Positions 4,707 through 61,153 of a DNA stretch of 64,000 nt are shown one piece after another. How positions within the stretch are numbered: position 1 is the stretch's first letter; every line of letters starts with the position of its first letter. The position numbers were made by a program, and so were the translations under genes. Source of the DNA: Escherichia coli (GTDB lineage: Bacteria > Pseudomonadota > Gammaproteobacteria > Enterobacterales > Enterobacteriaceae); NCBI RefSeq assembly GCF_044647545.1, contig NZ_CP172818.1, one strand, 5' to 3'. The notes under the pieces were generated by a model, which saw only the letters and a program-made list of their open reading frames with translations, was not told the DNA's origin and searched no databases.

Positions 4707-5535
4707 ACGCACACTCAGTCGCATCGGTTTTTACTGCGGGCTGGCGCTGTTTCTCATCATCACGCTGTTTCCGTTTTTTGTGATGCTGATGACCTCGTTC
4801 AAGAGCGCAAAAGAGGCGATCTCGCTGCATCCTACGCTGCTGCCGCAGCAGTGGACGCTGGAGCATTATGTCGACATTTTTAACCCGATGATTTTCCCGT
4901 TTGTCGATTATTTCCGTAACAGCATGGTGGTGTCGGTAGTTTCATCCGTGATAGCAGTATTTCTCGGCATTCTCGGGGCTTACGCGCTTTCCCGCCTGCG
5001 CTTTAAAGGGCGAATGACCATCAACGCCAGCTTCTACACGGTGTACATGTTCTCCGGCATTTTGCTGGTGGTGCCGCTGTTCAAAATCATCACCGCGCTT
5101 GGCGTTTACGACACCGAGATGGCGCTGATCATCACCATGGTTACGCAAACCCTGCCTACCGCCGTGTTTATGCTGAAAAGCTACTTCGACACCATCCCCG
5201 ATGAAATCGAAGAAGCGGCGATGATGGATGGCCTCAACCGGCTGCAAATCATCTTCCGCATCACGGTACCGCTGGCGATGTCCGGGCTGATATCCGTATT
5301 CGTCTACTGCTTTATGGTGGCATGGAACGACTATCTGTTTGCGTCGATTTTCCTCTCCAGCGCCAGCAATTTCACCTTACCAGTCGGCCTGAACGCGCTG
5401 TTCAGTACGCCTGATTACATCTGGGGACGGATGATGGCGGCCTCGCTGGTGACCGCATTGCCGGTGGTGATTATGTATGCGCTTTCGGAGCGTTTTATTA
5501 AGAGTGGTTTGACCGCCGGTGGCGTGAAGGGCTAA
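4693..5535 (+). CDS. ycjP: ABC transporter permease (MalG-like)
   Basis: 280 aa multi-TM ORF with EAAxxDG motif (EEAAMMDGLNRLQIIFRITVP). Confidence 0.85.
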   Translation: MATNKRTLSRIGFYCGLALFLIITLFPFFVMLMTSFKSAKEAISLHPTLLPQQWTLEHYVDIFNPMIFPFVDYFRNSMVVSVVSSVIAVFLGILGAYALSRLRFKGRMTINASFYTVYMFSGILLVVPLFKIITALGVYDTEMALIITMVTQTLPTAVFMLKSYFDTIPDEIEEAAMMDGLNRLQIIFRITVPLAMSGLISVFVYCFMVAWNDYLFASIFLSSASNFTLPVGLNALFSTPDYIWGRMMAASLVTALPVVIMYALSERFIKSGLTAGGVKG

Positions 5536-5565
5536 AGCGGCCAGTTTCTTGACAAGGAGTTTTAC

Positions 5566-6618
5566 ATGAAAAAGTTAGTAGCCACAGCACCGCGCGTTGC
5601 CGCGCTGGTTGAGTATGAAGATCGGGCGATTTTAGCCAATGAAGTGAAGATCCGCGTGCGTTTCGGCGCACCGAAACACGGAACGGAAGTGGTCGACTTC
5701 CGCGCCGCCAGCCCGTTTATCGATGAAGACTTTAACGGCGAGTGGCAGATGTTCACCCCGCGTCCCGCAGATGCGCCGCGCGGCATTGAGTTTGGCAAAT
5801 TCCAGCTTGGCAACATGGTGGTTGGCGACATTATCGAGTGCGGCAGCGACGTTACCGACTACGCGGTGGGCGACAGCGTATGCGGCTACGGCCCGCTCTC
5901 CGAGACGGTCATCATTAACGCAGTGAATAACTACAAGCTGCGCAAAATGCCGCAAGGCAGCTCCTGGAAAAACGCCGTCTGTTACGACCCGGCGCAGTTT
6001 GCCATGAGCGGCGTGCGCGATGCCAACGTACGCGTAGGGGATTTTGTCGTGGTGGTAGGGCTTGGCGCGATCGGTCAAATTGCCATCCAACTGGCAAAAC
6101 GCGCTGGCGCGTCGGTGGTAATTGGCGTCGATCCTATTACCCGTCGTTGTGAGATTGCCCGTCGCCACGGTGCGGATTTCTGTCTTAACCCCATTGGCGC
6201 TGACGTAGGTAAAGAGATCAAAACGCTGACCGGCAAGCAGGGTGCCGATGTGATTATCGAAACCAGCGGCTACGCCGACGCGCTGCAATCGGCACTTCGC
6301 GGCCTGGCATATGGCGGCACCATCTCGTATGTCGCATTTGCCAAACCATTTGCCGAAGGTTTCAACCTCGGACGTGAAGCCCATTTCAACAACGCCAAAA
6401 TTGTCTTCTCTCGTGCGTGCAGTGAACCGAACCCGGATTATCCGCGCTGGAGTCGCAAGCGTATTGAAGAAACCTGCTGGGAATTGCTGATGAACGGTTA
6501 TCTCAATTGTGAAGATTTGATCGACCCGGTGGTGACCTTTGCCAATAGCCCGGAAAGCTACATGCAGTATGTCGATCAGCATCCGGAACAGAGCATCAAA
6601 ATGGGCGTTACGTTTTAA
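5566..6618 (+). CDS. ycjQ: Zn-dependent medium-chain dehydrogenase (sugar 3-dehydrogenase family)
   Basis: 350 aa ORF with Rossmann GLGAIG motif; RBS aaggag upstream; operon context. Confidence 0.85.
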   Translation: MKKLVATAPRVAALVEYEDRAILANEVKIRVRFGAPKHGTEVVDFRAASPFIDEDFNGEWQMFTPRPADAPRGIEFGKFQLGNMVVGDIIECGSDVTDYAVGDSVCGYGPLSETVIINAVNNYKLRKMPQGSSWKNAVCYDPAQFAMSGVRDANVRVGDFVVVVGLGAIGQIAIQLAKRAGASVVIGVDPITRRCEIARRHGADFCLNPIGADVGKEIKTLTGKQGADVIIETSGYADALQSALRGLAYGGTISYVAFAKPFAEGFNLGREAHFNNAKIVFSRACSEPNPDYPRWSRKRIEETCWELLMNGYLNCEDLIDPVVTFANSPESYMQYVDQHPEQSIKMGVTF

Positions 6619-22982: not shown

Positions 22983-24014
22983 TTAGCGACCCTGGTCCGG
23001 CGGTGTAATGTTATCCATATACAGCGTCTGGCTGGGGAAGGCAAAGTCCGCACCGTGTGACTGTACAATATCGATAATCTTCAAATAAACGTCTTGCTGT
23101 GCAGCAAGCCATTCAGCCCATACCGTGGTTTTGGTAAAGCAATAAACCATAATATTCAATGAGGAGTCAGCAAACTGGTTGAAATAAACCAGTAAGGTTT
23201 GTCGCTGGTCGATGGCCGGGTGATTTTTCAGCATCTCACGTACGGCTTCGACAATAACGCCCACTTTTGCCGCATCCTCATAACGTAAACCAATGGTCGT
23301 GGTAATGCGCCGGTTGGTCATTCGTCCTGGGTTTTCTACGCTGATTGACGAAAACAACGAGTTCGGTACGTACAACGGACGATTATCAAAAGTCGTAATT
23401 TTGGTAATTCGCCAGCCAATTTCCGCTACTGTACCTTCGATATTTCTGTCCGGTGAACGGATCCAGTCGCCAATACTAAAAGGACGGTCGAAATAGAGCA
23501 TAATCCCGGAAAAGAAGTTACTCAAAATATCTTTACCGGCCATACCGACAGCCAGACCACCAATACCACCAAAGGTCAACAAGCCAGAAAGGCTCATGCC
23601 GAAATGTTCGCCATAAAGCAGAACAAGCACCACAATAATGGTGATTTTGATAATGCGCGACATGATCCGCGCACTGGTGATATCGCGACCTTTTTTAATC
23701 TGCTGTTTTTCAAACTGATTAATCAGCAGAAATAGCTTAATCGTCAGAATAACCGCAATCAGGGACGTACAGATAAAATCGATAACGCCTGGGGTGATAA
23801 ATTTGAGTTTATAGTTTTCTATAACATAGTTAATGATGCTACCAACAGCACTAATAATTATGGTGTAGATTAAAAATTGCACCGCATGGAATAAAAATCC
23901 TTTTCTTTTACGATTTCCACGGCGAAACCAAAAGCTCATCAGAATCAATGCTGCGCAGCTACCGAAAATAATGACCAGATTAAGCGCATTATTTGTAAAC
24001 AGTTCAGCGATCAT
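22983..24014 (-). CDS. ynaI: MscS-family mechanosensitive channel
   Basis: 343 aa ORF with N-terminal TM helices and MscS-like core. Confidence 0.85.
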
Positions 24015-54524: not shown

Positions 54525-55720
<1,196 letters not shown>

Positions 55721-55935
55721 CAAGGGGAAAACGCACGATGTGCTGACCGGAAGTGATGACGATCGCCACAGCAACACGTCTCTGGCGTGGGGAGCTGGCG
55801 TGCAGTTTAACCCGACCGAATCCGTGGCCATTGACATTGCTTATGAAGGCTCCGGCAGTGGCGACTGGCGCACTGACGGTTTCATCGTGGGTGTCGGTTA
55901 TAAATTCTGATTAGCCAGGTAACACAGTGTTATGA

Positions 55936-55963
55936 CAGCCCGCCGGTTCAGGCGGGCTTTTTT
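55936..55963 (+). terminator. intrinsic terminator downstream of lomR
   Basis: agcccgcc-ggttca-ggcgggct followed by tttttt. Confidence 0.45.
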
Positions 55964-55968
55964 GTGGA

Positions 55969-58900
55969 GTGGATATGGCAGCAGTAAAAATCTCAGGTGT
56001 GCTGAAAGATGGTGCGGGAAAACCAATACAGAACTGCACTATTCAACTGAGGGCAAAGCGTAACAGCACCACGGTACTGGTGAACACGGTGGCCTCTGAA
56101 AATCCGGATGAAGCCGGGCGTTACAGCATGGATGTTGAGTATGGCCAGTACAGCGTCACCCTGCTGGTTGAAGGTTTTCCGCCTTCACATGCCGGAACCA
56201 TTACCGTCTATGAAGGTTCCAGACCAGGTACGCTGAATGATTTTCTCGGTGCCATGACGGAAGATGATGTCATGCCGGAGGCATTGCGTCGTTTTGAGGC
56301 AATGGTGGAAGAAGCGGCACGCAACGCGTCCGCGGTGGCACAGAACACGGCAGCCGCGAAGAAGTCAGCCAGTGATGCCAGCACATCAGCCCGTGAGGCG
56401 GCAACCCATGCGGCTGATGCTGCGGACTCAGCACGCGCAGCCAGCACGTCAGCCGGACAGGCCGCGTCGTCGGCTCAGTCAGCGTCTTCCAGCGCAGGAA
56501 CGGCATCAACAAAGGCCACTGAAGCATCAAAAAGTGCTGCCGCTGCAGAGTCCTCAAAAAGCGCGGCGGCCACCAGTGCCGGTGCGGCGAAAACGTCAGA
56601 AACGAATGCTTCAGCGTCACTACAATCAGCAGCCACATCTGCATCCACCGCGACCACGAAGGCATCAGAAGCTGCGACCTCGGCCCGGGATGCGGCGGCC
56701 TCAAAAGAAGCGGCAAAATCATCAGAAACGAACGCATCATCAAGCGCCAGTAGTGCAGCTTCCTCGGCAACGGCGGCAGGAAATTCCGCGAAGGCGGCAA
56801 AAACGTCCGAGACGAACGCCAGGTCTTCTGAAACGGCAGCGGGACAGAGCGCCTCGGCTGCGGCAGGCTCAAAAACAGCGGCTGCGTCGTCTGCCAGTGC
56901 AGCGTCAACAAGTGCCGGGCAGGCCTCAGCCAGTGCCACCGCCGCCGGAAAATCGGCAGAAAGCGCCGCATCGTCTGCTTCAACAGCCACAACGAAGGCT
57001 GGCGAAGCCACTGAACAGGCCAGCGCAGCAGCGAGGTCTGCTTCCGCAGCGAAGACATCCGAAACGAACGCGAAAGCGTCGGAAACAAGCGCAGAATCCT
57101 CAAAAACGGCTGCCGCATCGTCAGCCAGTTCGGCGGCGTCATCGGCATCATCGGCGTCTGCTTCAAAAGATGAGGCGACCAGACAAGCGTCAGCAGCGAA
57201 GAGCAGCGCCACGACGGCATCCACGAAGGCGACAGAGGCTGCTGGCAGTGCGACGGCGGCAGCTCAGAGCAAAAGTACGGCGGAATCCGCGGCAACGCGC
57301 GCCGAGACAGCAGCTAAACGGGCAGAGGATATTGCATCCGCCGTGGCGCTTGAGGATGCAAGTACGACGAAAAAGGGGATAGTACAGCTCAGCAGTGCGA
57401 CCAACAGTACGTCTGAAACGCTGGCGGCAACGCCAAAGGCAGTAAAATCAGCCTATGACAATGCAGAGAAACGTCTGCAGAAAGACCAGAACGGCGCTGA
57501 TATACCCGATAAGGGATGCTTCCTGAACAACATTAACGCGGTCAGTAAAACAGACTTTGCTGATAAGCGTGGTATGCGTTATGTGCGGGTTAACGCTCCT
57601 GCAGGTGCAACATCTGGAAAATATTACCCTGTTGTTGTTATGCGTTCTGCTGGCTCAGTAAGCGAACTGGCATCAAGAGTCATTATCACCACGGCAACGC
57701 GAACCGCAGGCGATCCGATGAATAACTGCGAGTTTAACGGATTTGTTATGCCTGGTGGCTGGACTGACAGGGGGCGTTATGCTTATGGCATGTTCTGGCA
57801 ATATCAAAACAATGAACGAGCCATTCACTCAATAATGATGAGTAATAAGGGCGATGATTTGCGCTCTGTGTTCTATGTTGATGGCGCTGCTTTCCCTGTT
57901 TTTGCGTTTATTGAAGATGGCCTGTCAATATCCGCACCTGGTGCTGATCTCGTTGTTAATGATACGACCTATAAGTTTGGGGCAACAAATCCGGCGACTG
58001 AATGTATCGCGGCGGACGTTATCCTTGATTTTAAGAGTGGGCGTGGTTTTTATGAGTCTCATTCGTTAATCGTTAACGATAACTTGTCGTGCAAAAAACT
58101 TTTTGCCACAGACGAAATTGTAGCGCGTGGTGGTAATCAGATTCGAATGATAGGTGGGGAGTATGGTGCATTATGGCGTAATGATGGCGCTAAAACTTAC
58201 CTGCTGCTTACCAATCAAGGTGATGTTTATGGTGGCTGGAATACATTAAGACCGTTTGCTATTGATAACGCAACCGGCGAACTGGTTATTGGAACCAAAC
58301 TGTCCGCAAGTCTGAACGGTAATGCATTAACAGCAACAAAGCTGCAAACGCCAAGACGGGTTTCTGGTGTTGAGTTTGATGGTTCCAAAGATATTACTTT
58401 AACCGCCGCGCATGTGGCTGCTTTTGCCAGAAGGGCAACGGATACATATGCCGATGCGGATGGTGGCGTTCCATGGAATGCCGAATCTGGCGCTTACAAT
58501 GTCACCCGCTCTGGCGACAGCTATATTCTGGTTAACTTCTATACCGGAGTCGGAAGTTGCCGGACCCTGCAGATGAAGGCGCATTACAGAAATGGTGGTC
58601 TGTTCTACCGTTCTTCAAGAGACGGTTATGGTTTTGAGGAAGACTGGGCAGAAGTTTATACCTCGAAAAATCTTCCACCAGAAAGCTACCCAGTCGGCGC
58701 ACCAATCCCGTGGCCATCAGATACGCCACCTGCAGGTTATGCAATCATGCAGGGGCAGACGTTTGATAAGGCAGCATATCCGAAACTGGCTATTGCCTAT
58801 CCTTCTGGTGTTATTCCAGATATGCGCGGCTGGACAATCAAGGGCAAACCCGCCAGTGGTCGGGCCGTATTGTCTCAGGAACAGGATGGCATTAAATCGC

Positions 58901-59340
58901 ACACCCACAGTGCCAGCGCATCCAGTACGGATTTGGGTACGAAAACCACATCGTCGTTTGATTACGGTACTAAATCAACGAATAACACAGGTGCACATAC
59001 CCACAATGTATCTGGTACTGCAAATAGTGCTGGCGCACATACTCATACCGTTCCATTAAGGAGACCAAACAGTGGCGGTATGAATTTCGACTGGCTGGAT
59101 GGTTCATCAAGTGGCACGGTGGTGGGGAATGGAACTGTGCCTTCTTCTGGCGCACATACCCACTCAGTATCAGGTACCGCTACAAGTGCTGGGGCACATG
59201 CACACACTGTTGGTATTGGCGCTCATACGCACTCTGTTAAGATTGGTTCACATGGACACACCATCACCGTTAACGCTGCTGGTAACGCGGAAAACACCGT
59301 TAAAAACATCGCATTTAATTATATTGTGAGGCTTGCATAA
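55969..59340 (+). CDS. stfR: side tail fibre protein
   Basis: 1123 aa ORF (GTG at 55969; ATG at 55975); long Ala/Ser/Thr-rich low-complexity central region and C-terminal His-rich repeats (GAHTHxVSGTA). Confidence 0.85.
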
Positions 59341-59915
59341 TGGCATTCAGAATGAGTGAACAATCACGTACCGTAAAAATTTATAACCTGCTGGCCGGAA
59401 CTAATGAGTTTATTGGTGAAGGTGACGCATATATTCCACCTCATACAGGGCTGCCAGCTAATTCTACAGATATCGCCCCACCGGAAATTCCTGCTGGCTT
59501 TGTGGCAGTTTTTAACAGTGAAAATGAATCGTGGAATATTGTTGAAGACCATCGTGGTAAAACGGTCTATGACGTGGCGTCGGGGGACGCATTGTTTATT
59601 TCTGAACTCGGACCGCTACCAGAGAATGTCACCTGGTTGTCGCCAGCAGGGGAGTATCAGAAGTGGGACGGCGTATCCTGGGTGAATGATGAGGAAGCAG
59701 AAAAACTGTTTCGGATACGGGAAGCGGAAGAAAGAAAAAGCAACCTGATGCAGGTAGCCAGTGAGCATATTGCGCCGCTTCAGGATGCTGCAGATCTGGA
59801 AATTGCAACGGAGGAAGAAACCCCGTTGCTGGAAGCATGGAAAAAGTATCGGGTATTGCTGAACCGTGTTGATACGTCAACTGCACAGGATATTGAATGG
59901 CCAGCACTGCCGTAG
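59340..59915 (+). CDS. tfaR: tail fibre assembly protein
   Basis: 191 aa ORF whose ATG overlaps the stfR stop (TAATG); Tfa family. Confidence 0.85.
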
Positions 59916-60012
59916 GGTAAAACATATAAATTCTATAATTAGATGTATCTTTCCATTTACGGCAAGGAAGGGGGCTTGGAAGACGTAAAGCATCTCACAC
60001 CGAGATTATTTT

Positions 60013-60603
60013 TTATATGTCAGGTGTCTGAAGTTTTGCTTTGGCTCTTAAAATGGTTTGCCGCGAGGTTTTGAATTCCCGGGCAATGGCACTTATACTT
60101 ACACCTGACTTAATTCGTTCGAATACCACCTGTTTCTGTTCTTCATTTAACACAGGTGGTCGACCAAAACGTTTCCCTGCGCCGCGGGCTCTTACTATCC
60201 CGGAATGAGTGCGTTCAAGTAAAAGGTCTCGTTCAAATTCAGCGACTGCTGAAATTACTTGCATCATCATTTTTCCTGTTGGACTGGTCAGGTCAATGCC
60301 ACCCAATGCTAAGCAATGCACTCTGATACCTGTTTCGGTCAGTTGTTCCACTGTTTTCCTGATATCCATTGCATTACAACCAAGGCGATCCAGTTTTGTC
60401 ACAATCAATTGATCACCACATTTCAGGCGAGCAAGCAACCGGTTAAAACCAGGACGCTCACTGGTTGCTGCTGAGCCGCTAATGTGTTCTTCGATTATTT
60501 GCTGAGGTTTGATTTTAAAACCTGCACTTTCGATTTCCCGGCGTTGATTTTCGGTGGTCTGATCCAGCGTTGATATCCGACAGTAAGCAAAAATTCGAGA
60601 CAT
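60013..60603 (-). CDS. pinR: serine-recombinase DNA invertase (Pin/Hin/Gin family)
   Basis: 196 aa ORF with N-terminal resolvase catalytic region ([15 protein letters not shown]) and C-terminal HTH. Confidence 0.85.
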
Positions 60604-60919
60604 AGTGAGACTCTATACGAAATTGGTGTTCATATCATAATGCATCTCAGAAAATAATTATGATTATTTTTGTGCATATTTGTATGTACACGTTCGAAAA
60701 TAAACGAATGCGTATGCAACCCCGTAATTTTGGTGAGACCCAAAATCGATTTTGTGAAAAAAGGCTTTAACTCGGTTTGTTTTTCGAGTTCCGGGCGGAC
60801 TCAAGGAAGAAGAATAGTGTTGCGTGTTATTTTAACCAGATTTCAAGTTGTTTGGTCGTGGAAAAGTGGAGCAAAATGTTGTTAAAGTGGAAAAATGATA
60901 AAAAAGTAAGTTTATTATA

Positions 60920-61153
60920 TTACATTTTACCATTTAAATTTTGGTTGTCTTTAAGAACTGATATCGCTGTTTGTAATAATTCTTTGTTATCCAGCCATGA
61001 TTTTTTCTTTATGTTTCCTTCAATGTAATCAAGCAATGTTCTGGTATTGATAGGTCTTCCCTGTTTTGCTACTTCCACTACAGCATCCCCTAGGATAATT
61101 CTTACTTCAGGAAGCTGCGCAGGGAACCACTTTAGGGTGTCTTTTGATTTCAT
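60920..61153 (-). CDS. ynaE: prophage protein YnaE (YdfK-like)
   Basis: ORF 60920-61258; likely 77-aa product MKSKDTLKWFPAQLPEVRIILGDAVVEVAKQGRPINTRTLL... Confidence 0.65.
   Translation of the reverse strand: MKSKDTLKWFPAQLPEVRIILGDAVVEVAKQGRPINTRTLLDYIEGNIKKKSWLDNKELLQTAISVLKDNQNLNGKM

Follow-up and report, generated by a model that had tools for sequence, protein, structure and literature searches.

The pinR gene of a Rac-type prophage of Escherichia coli as the probable relic of a Tn3-family resolvase cassette

Based on the comparison of pinR and its surroundings with homologous loci, the pinR gene in a 64-kb stretch of Escherichia coli DNA (64,000 nucleotides, here called the window) is very probably the fossil tnpR of a decayed, non-autonomous Tn3-family cassette, and the inversion site proposed inside it very probably arose by chance. 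The original prediction had taken PinR for an orphan invertase of the Pin/Gin family, with a weak crossover site in its own 3' end and with a neighboring tail-fiber segment that may no longer be invertible. The premise fails on family grounds: PinR is a Tn3-family TnpR resolvase, not a Gin/Pin-type invertase.

From 54 to 64 kb, the window covers the right-hand end of a lambdoid prophage of the Rac type, located at uspF/ompN. The side tail-fiber gene stf (55969-59340, plus strand, 1,123 codons) is followed by the ORF of the tail-fiber assembly gene tfa (59340..59915, plus strand; Pfam Caudo_TAP, E = 2.5e-42), which serves here only as context, by pinR (60013-60603, minus strand), which is an intact ORF of 196 codons, and by a ydfK/ynaE-like gene in the ORF list (60920-61153, minus strand). 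As had been noticed earlier, pinR converges on tfa, with a gap of 97 bp between the two ORFs. Judging from the window ORFs, stf and tfa exist in one copy each, both on the plus strand, and a second, inverted stf'/tfa' set is absent; this situation is different from the S-U/U'-S' arrangement of D108 and its equivalents in P1. The PinR protein is identical to that of K-12, and the 210-bp region upstream of the gene matches K-12 at 209 of 210 positions. The tfa gene is a mosaic (89% identity overall to K-12 tfaR): its last ~190 bp are near-identical to tfaR, the 5' part shows 77-92% identity, and recurrent mosaic breakpoints lie at ~59804 and ~59861. At the 3' end of the tail-fiber gene (58990-59211), repeated GAHTH-type units form 63-nt direct repeats that are 78% identical and match the Pfam Phage_fiber repeat. 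On its upstream side, the same gene adjoins a lom-like outer-membrane gene interrupted by an IS5-type transposase ORF (54672-55652, minus strand, 326 aa).

PinR consists of the Pfam domains Resolvase and HTH_7 and is a small serine recombinase. Its identity to both Gin and Cin is 36%, whereas Gin and Cin are 75% identical to each other, so that the high mutual identity of the Gin/Hin/Cin/Pin group does not extend to PinR. Gamma-delta resolvase itself shows 37-38% identity to Gin and Cin, and so PinR is no closer to the invertases than a resolvase is. By contrast, PinR reaches 78-84% identity with resolvases whose genes adjoin those of Tn3-family transposases, and this close homology to transposase-linked recombinases is what places it with the TnpR proteins. 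The TnpR of three such loci (L117-L119) is 78% identical to PinR and is encoded 159 bp from a divergent transposase of 994 aa (DDE_Tnp_Tn3), and a copy on ColV plasmids is 83% identical. A tblastn search with this 994-aa transposase as the query recognized a Tn3-family transposase adjoining the recombinase gene, in divergent or co-directional orientation, in at least 23 of 80 genome loci, and none in the 64-kb window. The family is very large: proteins 63-86% identical to PinR occur on plasmids of enterobacteria and across many Proteobacteria; of the 8,000 candidates scored, 7,951 match PinR at E <= 1e-20, and 1,835 plasmid records contain a relative. Because the identity of PinR to gamma-delta resolvase is only 32%, the PinR group is a separate subfamily. 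The Tn5403 group was considered as the possible source of the parent transposon; a literature search gave no sequence-level link, and this candidate was dropped. In the literature searched, we could not find any report linking pinR to Tn3-type resolvases. An exact-protein look-up of a Methylovulum relative returned no record.

The 125 nt upstream of the recombinase gene have one common architecture in 73 distinct relatives. Site I (26 bp) reads TGTCCGAAA-CCGACCGG-TTTCGTACA and is followed by a 14-bp spacer; site II (32 bp) has the same half-sites spaced wider and is followed by a TATAAT box; site III (~20 bp) ends ~12 nt ahead of the start codon. Such a layout is that of a res site; on the model of Tn3 and gamma-delta, crossover would take place at site I, and sites II and III would have accessory roles. 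The corresponding stretch of the window, 60614-60716, is collinear with and homologous to the family res and retains 35 of its 43 best-conserved columns, with site I at 60691..60716, site II at 60645..60676 and site III at 60614..60633, all on the minus strand. When scored with leave-one-out matrices made from the relatives, however, the three sites of the window fall far below those of the family: site I reaches -2.7 bits (family 33.7 ± 7.1, minimum 13.7; 5.1 sd below), site II 12.1 bits (39.5 ± 6.3, minimum 24.8; 4.3 sd below) and site III 13.1 bits (27.2 ± 4.4, minimum 19.1; 3.2 sd below), and no family member is as low as the window at any of the three. Site I differs from the consensus TGTCCGAAACCGACCGGTTTCGTACA at 13 of 26 positions, and its center has changed from CCGACCGG to TCGTTTAT. 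No site I-like sequence exists elsewhere in the 64 kb, where the best score is 5.3 bits. In short, the res of the window is an eroded relic and probably not a working site. The outer triplets of the six relic half-sites are CAT, CGT, TGC, TCT, TGA and TAT, against TGT in the family; each half-site has lost TGT in a different way, which argues for drift and not for a new specificity. Prophage copies also diverge from each other more in the res sites than in the gene. Where the family has its conserved TATAAT, between sites II and III, the window has TATGAT (60634..60639, minus strand), which is likely to be the -10 element of the pinR promoter.

Together with the gene and the relic res, two relic 38-bp terminal repeats make up a cassette of 834 bp (59970-60803). 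The repeat at the tnpR end (59970..60007, plus strand) has its outer GGGG at 59970 and matches an intact repeat downstream of the plasmid gene L004 at ~36 of 46 positions in an alignment with a single 3-nt gap. Its counterpart at the res end (60766..60803, minus strand, outer end 60803) lies in a collinear position with the repeat upstream of the same plasmid copy and matches it at 26 of 38 positions. Homology to the plasmid copies in BLAST ends at window position 59974, at the outer end of the repeat. Both relic repeats are degenerate, and the outer GGGG of one of them reads TGAG; nevertheless, the cassette has the 38-bp terminal repeats and the 5-bp duplication of a Tn3-family insertion. The duplication is AGGAA, found just outside one relic repeat at 59965..59969 and, in identical form, just outside the other at 60804..60808; it is embedded in an 8-nt direct repeat, CAAGGAAG. 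A target duplication of 5 bp is typical of Tn3-family transposition. An empty target site, in which one copy of AGGAA would connect tfa to ydfK, was present in none of 5,426 E. coli genomes and 50,697 phage records; it is the repeats and the duplication that suggest transposition as the means of insertion.

The plasmid copy L004 (plasmid pEc45-2020-190kb, ~4844-5700) is an apparently intact cassette of ~860 bp that contains no transposase and is ordered terminal repeat, res, tnpR, terminal repeat; it adjoins the sit iron-uptake operon of ColV-type plasmids. Each of its ends is an intact 38-bp terminal repeat of the Tn3 type (GGGGTC...TAAG), and the downstream one matches the transposase-end repeat of a complete transposon (L118) at 37 of 38 positions. 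The two repeats of L004 match each other at only 29 of 38 positions and are not flanked by a target duplication, which suggests that this copy is a hybrid produced by recombination between two res sites.

The stretch between the relic terminal repeat and the relic res site I of the window (60729-60760) contains a perfect 14-bp palindrome, CAAAATCGATTTTG (60741-60754), with a third copy of ATTTTGG alongside. The prophage copies conserve the palindrome and the plasmid relatives lack it; within the window it occurs once, with seven near-matches where 6.5 are expected. We considered it as a crossover site of PinR and rejected it, as it falls outside the res of the family. A direct repeat, GCATCTCA, was spotted by eye on either side of pinR. 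A search for inverted and direct repeats around pinR gave only short matches of chance quality.

The string ggtttgccgcgaggttttgaattcc, on which the predicted recombination site was based, does exist in the window, at 60055..60079 (plus strand), 3 nt away from the 60058-60082 first given, and it does lie inside the 3' end of pinR, where it occupies the codons for residues ~175-183 in the helix-turn-helix region. It had been regarded as a partial match to the gix/hix core, and this is where the idea breaks down. We scored the window with a half-site matrix of 12 nt derived from D108 gix and P1 cix (both read from genomes), e14 pix (PMC12529663) and hix. Real gix, cix, pix and hix sites score 28.1-32.4 bits with this matrix, whereas the 26-mer at 60053-60078 scores -8.0 bits (left half -16.6, right half +8.5), a chance-level value that ranks 846th among 63,975 window positions, and about 691 equally good 26-mers are found in simulated 64-kb sequence of the same length and dinucleotide make-up. 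Because of this score, this rank and this number of random equals, the candidate crossover site is noise: a chance half-match produced by the coding sequence. For the right half taken by itself, the window contains 44 equals (~26 expected), and the 10-mer CGAGGTTTTG is one of 11 window ten-mers shared with known crossover sites, where 7.4 ± 3.1 are expected. Nine-mers in common with invertase sites are in excess (47, against 30 in simulation) and none of them combine into a site; the excess is probably an effect of composition outside the first-order model. The sequence AAACCNNGGTTT, with one mismatch at most, has four matches in the window (2.5 expected), none of them near pinR.

No gix-like site was found by the matrix scan anywhere in the 64-kb window. 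The systematic scan of 55900-60700 gave no 26-mer above 3.6 bits, and so the earlier statement that stf and tfa hold no inverted partner stands. The best gix-like 26-mer of the whole window, TCAGCCCATACCGTGGTTTTGGTAAA (23113-23138; 14.2 bits), has no partner and lies far from pinR; the random maximum is 10.3 ± 2.5 bits, and we regard this score as within random expectation.

The arrangement of the locus in other genomes agrees with these scans. The order tfa-pin-ydfK is collinear in 2,052 genomes, and a flipped cassette junction was recognized in 0 of 5,426 complete E. coli genomes. A published BLAST survey likewise found no inversions in Rac or Qin, and inversions in e14 only (PMC12529663). 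In strain TUM13867 and phage HannyBb, a different fiber cassette replaces the fiber genes in the same orientation, and where the fiber cassette differs, a 111-bp remnant of the tfa 3' end (L003, 6002-6112) adjoins pin; the replacement is a mosaic exchange and not an inversion. Thus, there is no usable PinR recombination site near stf and tfa, and the segment is not invertible. The prediction was right in that the tail-fiber segment cannot be inverted now, but nothing suggests that it was ever invertible by PinR.

The catalytic set of the Tn3 resolvases (Tn3 numbering) is Y6, R8, S10, D36, R68 and R71. PinR retains Tyr7, Arg9, Ser11 and Arg73 but not the complete set: codon 76 (60376-60378) encodes Cys, in a column that aligns with R71 of the gamma-delta and Tn3 resolvases and is the catalytic Arg in 79 relatives, with the motif DRLGRN in 72 loci and DRLGRD in seven. 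The motif DRLGCN is exclusive to E. coli prophage-type copies (nine loci), both diverged alleles included. In Tn3 resolvase, the changes R71A and R71K abolish recombination and lower cleavage ~1000-fold, while DNA binding is kept, although the mutants are described as "not inert" (PMC2794168). PinR would therefore be expected to have lost catalysis, and it is most likely, on the sequence evidence, a recombinase with no substrate in cis and with strongly reduced chemistry; residual DNA binding and autorepression may persist.

The constraint on PinR is strongly relaxed, though present. Of 105 positions with at least 95% conservation among 72 distinct relatives, PinR departs from nine (family mean 0.64), none of the changes being at conserved positions of the helix-turn-helix. 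The dN/dS ratio is 0.04-0.06 within the family, 0.14 between PinR and a plasmid copy and 0.35 between the two prophage alleles; since 0.35 is below 1, the gene probably still has some constraint or function. Thousands of genomes carry the ORF intact, as do plaque-forming phages such as HannyBb and Turner. A prophage at another locus (L009, E. coli GCA_910593615.1, 4386-5922) shares the ynaE-pin-tfa arrangement. For the most part its pin allele resembles the plasmid type, with Arg76 and intact res sites II and III, but it keeps the destroyed site I of the prophage type, which suggests a recombinant of prophage and plasmid copies.

That pinR is instead a Pin/Gin-family invertase gene which at one time inverted part of stf-tfa, and whose gix-like sites then decayed to leave the half-site at 60055-60079, is scarcely credible. 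The protein does have serine-recombinase domains, the gene is beside tail-fiber genes as gin, cin and pinE are, and ten nucleotides are identical to the gix core. However, the identity to Gin and Cin is only that of a resolvase, the candidate site scores at chance level, and a second inverted fiber set is missing. Canonical sites, moreover, lie upstream of the invertase gene or flank its 5' end (the gix repeat of D108 is 55 bp upstream of gin), whereas it is the 3' end of pinR that faces tfa, and the region upstream of pinR is homologous to a res array instead. We likewise consider it highly improbable that PinR still works as a resolvase, for example in the resolution of phage or prophage dimers, on a res that has acquired a new sequence by co-evolution. 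The open ORF, the conserved columns retained upstream and the unchanged conserved positions of the helix-turn-helix would agree with this; yet the six relic half-sites share no new consensus, the center of site I has been replaced, the catalytic Arg is lost and prophage copies differ more in their res sites than in the gene. A new specificity is also not expected when the recognition helix is unchanged.

A published explanation is that PinR and PinQ are active invertases that act in trans on the pix sites of e14, which lies outside the 64-kb window, as a phage-defense switch. Over-production of PinQ brought the inverted fraction of the e14 P segment to 88%, against 30% in the wild type, T2-resistant survivors carried the inversion, deletion of pinQ lowered survival, and PinQ, 99% identical to PinR and treated as its equivalent, was named with it as the dominant invertase (PMC12529663, NAR 2025). 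Against this stand the qPCR values of Table S4 in the same report, in which the inverted fraction is 22% after deletion of pinQ, compared with 30% in the wild type, and only 1.5% after deletion of pinE with pinQ and pinR intact; neither a catalytic-mutant control nor an assay of PinQ in a pinE-deletion background is described (PMC12529663). At native levels, PinE and not PinQ/PinR accounts for the inversion of the P segment. PinR and PinQ are without the R71-equivalent Arg, and the half-site of their family, TGTCCGAAA, is unlike that of pix, TTCTCCCAAACC, so that direct catalysis looks doubtful; it could still occur, since mutation of R71 does not make the enzyme completely inert and the experiment used over-produced protein. 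The value of 88% also exceeds the ~50% equilibrium that a simple reversible invertase would be expected to reach, and this points to selection or to an indirect effect. Altogether, we judge action in trans as an invertase to be unlikely. It is tentatively conceivable that PinR and PinQ are exapted, catalytically crippled resolvases kept for binding DNA or other serine recombinases, the effect on e14 and T2 then arising through modulation of PinE or through gene regulation; if this were true, a domesticated transposon resolvase would be a regulator in a phage-defense circuit.

As a fossil tnpR, pinR would have the following history. A cassette of terminal repeat, res, tnpR and terminal repeat would have transposed into the intergenic region between tfa and ydfK of an ancestral lambdoid phage, leaving the AGGAA duplication, and would since have been carried by Rac- and Qin-type prophages and their active relatives. 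In the working relatives, the protein would bind the three sites upstream of its own gene, with crossover at site I and with the accessory sites II and III flanking the -10 box of the promoter, and would resolve cointegrates or dimers between two directly repeated copies of res. Because a resolvase acts on direct res repeats, it never needs an inverted partner, and for a relic of a Tn3-family resolvase no inversion site is to be expected in the tail-fiber genes. The system has decayed in the prophage lineage: site I can no longer be recognized, erosion has affected sites II and III as well as the two terminal repeats, the transposase is gone, and Cys occupies the position of the catalytic Arg.

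For decades, pinR and pinQ have been annotated as putative DNA invertase genes in the best-studied bacterial genome. One RefSeq protein, WP_000086527.1 (the record of K-12 PinR), serves genes annotated as "pinR" and as "pinQ", and the conclusions on PinR should apply also to PinQ. The status of a fossil resolvase explains why both genes are orphans with no inversion site beside them, removes the expectation of tail-fiber switching in Rac and Qin, and gives a testable reason to re-examine the 2025 report of an e14 inversion catalyzed by PinQ/PinR as an anti-phage switch. The locus also illustrates cleanly how a fragment of a transposon can become fixed in a phage module that is widely shared. 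Otherwise, the result is a correction of annotation with no new mechanism, and the gene itself is ordinary.

Among known systems, the closest likeness is to Tn3 and gamma-delta. Like TnpR, PinR is a small serine recombinase in which a helix-turn-helix follows the catalytic domain, and three differently spaced sites, eroded to relics in the window, immediately precede the gene and enclose its promoter, as in their res. Its 78-84% identical relatives adjoin Tn3-family transposases and lie between 38-bp GGGG...TAAG repeats, and a 5-bp duplication flanks the pinR cassette likewise. The half-site TGTCCGAAA and the site lengths of 26, 32 and ~20 bp distinguish the PinR family from Tn3 and gamma-delta, and the window further departs from the Tn3 family in having no transposase, a destroyed site I and a Cys as the R71 equivalent. 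The Gin, Hin, Cin and PinE systems have gix, hix, cix and pix sites with a Fis-bound enhancer within the 5' portion of the recombinase gene, the crossover sites being two inverted 26-bp sequences of the form 12-2-12 with the core AAACC NN GGTTT. PinR shares with them the protein superfamily, the adjoining tail-fiber genes and the historical name "Pin"; however, it has no inverted pair of 26-bp sites, no alternative fiber set and no orientation polymorphism, and the 3' end of its gene, not the 5' end, faces the fiber genes. Non-autonomous derivatives of the Tn3 family include miniature elements and insertion cassettes bounded by Tn3-type repeats. The pinR cassette resembles these in its Tn3-type repeats, its 5-bp duplication and the absence of a transposase, and differs in carrying only res and tnpR, in being decayed and in being probably immobile. 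PinQ of the Qin prophage of E. coli K-12 has the same context of tfa, pin and ydfK at a different chromosomal locus.
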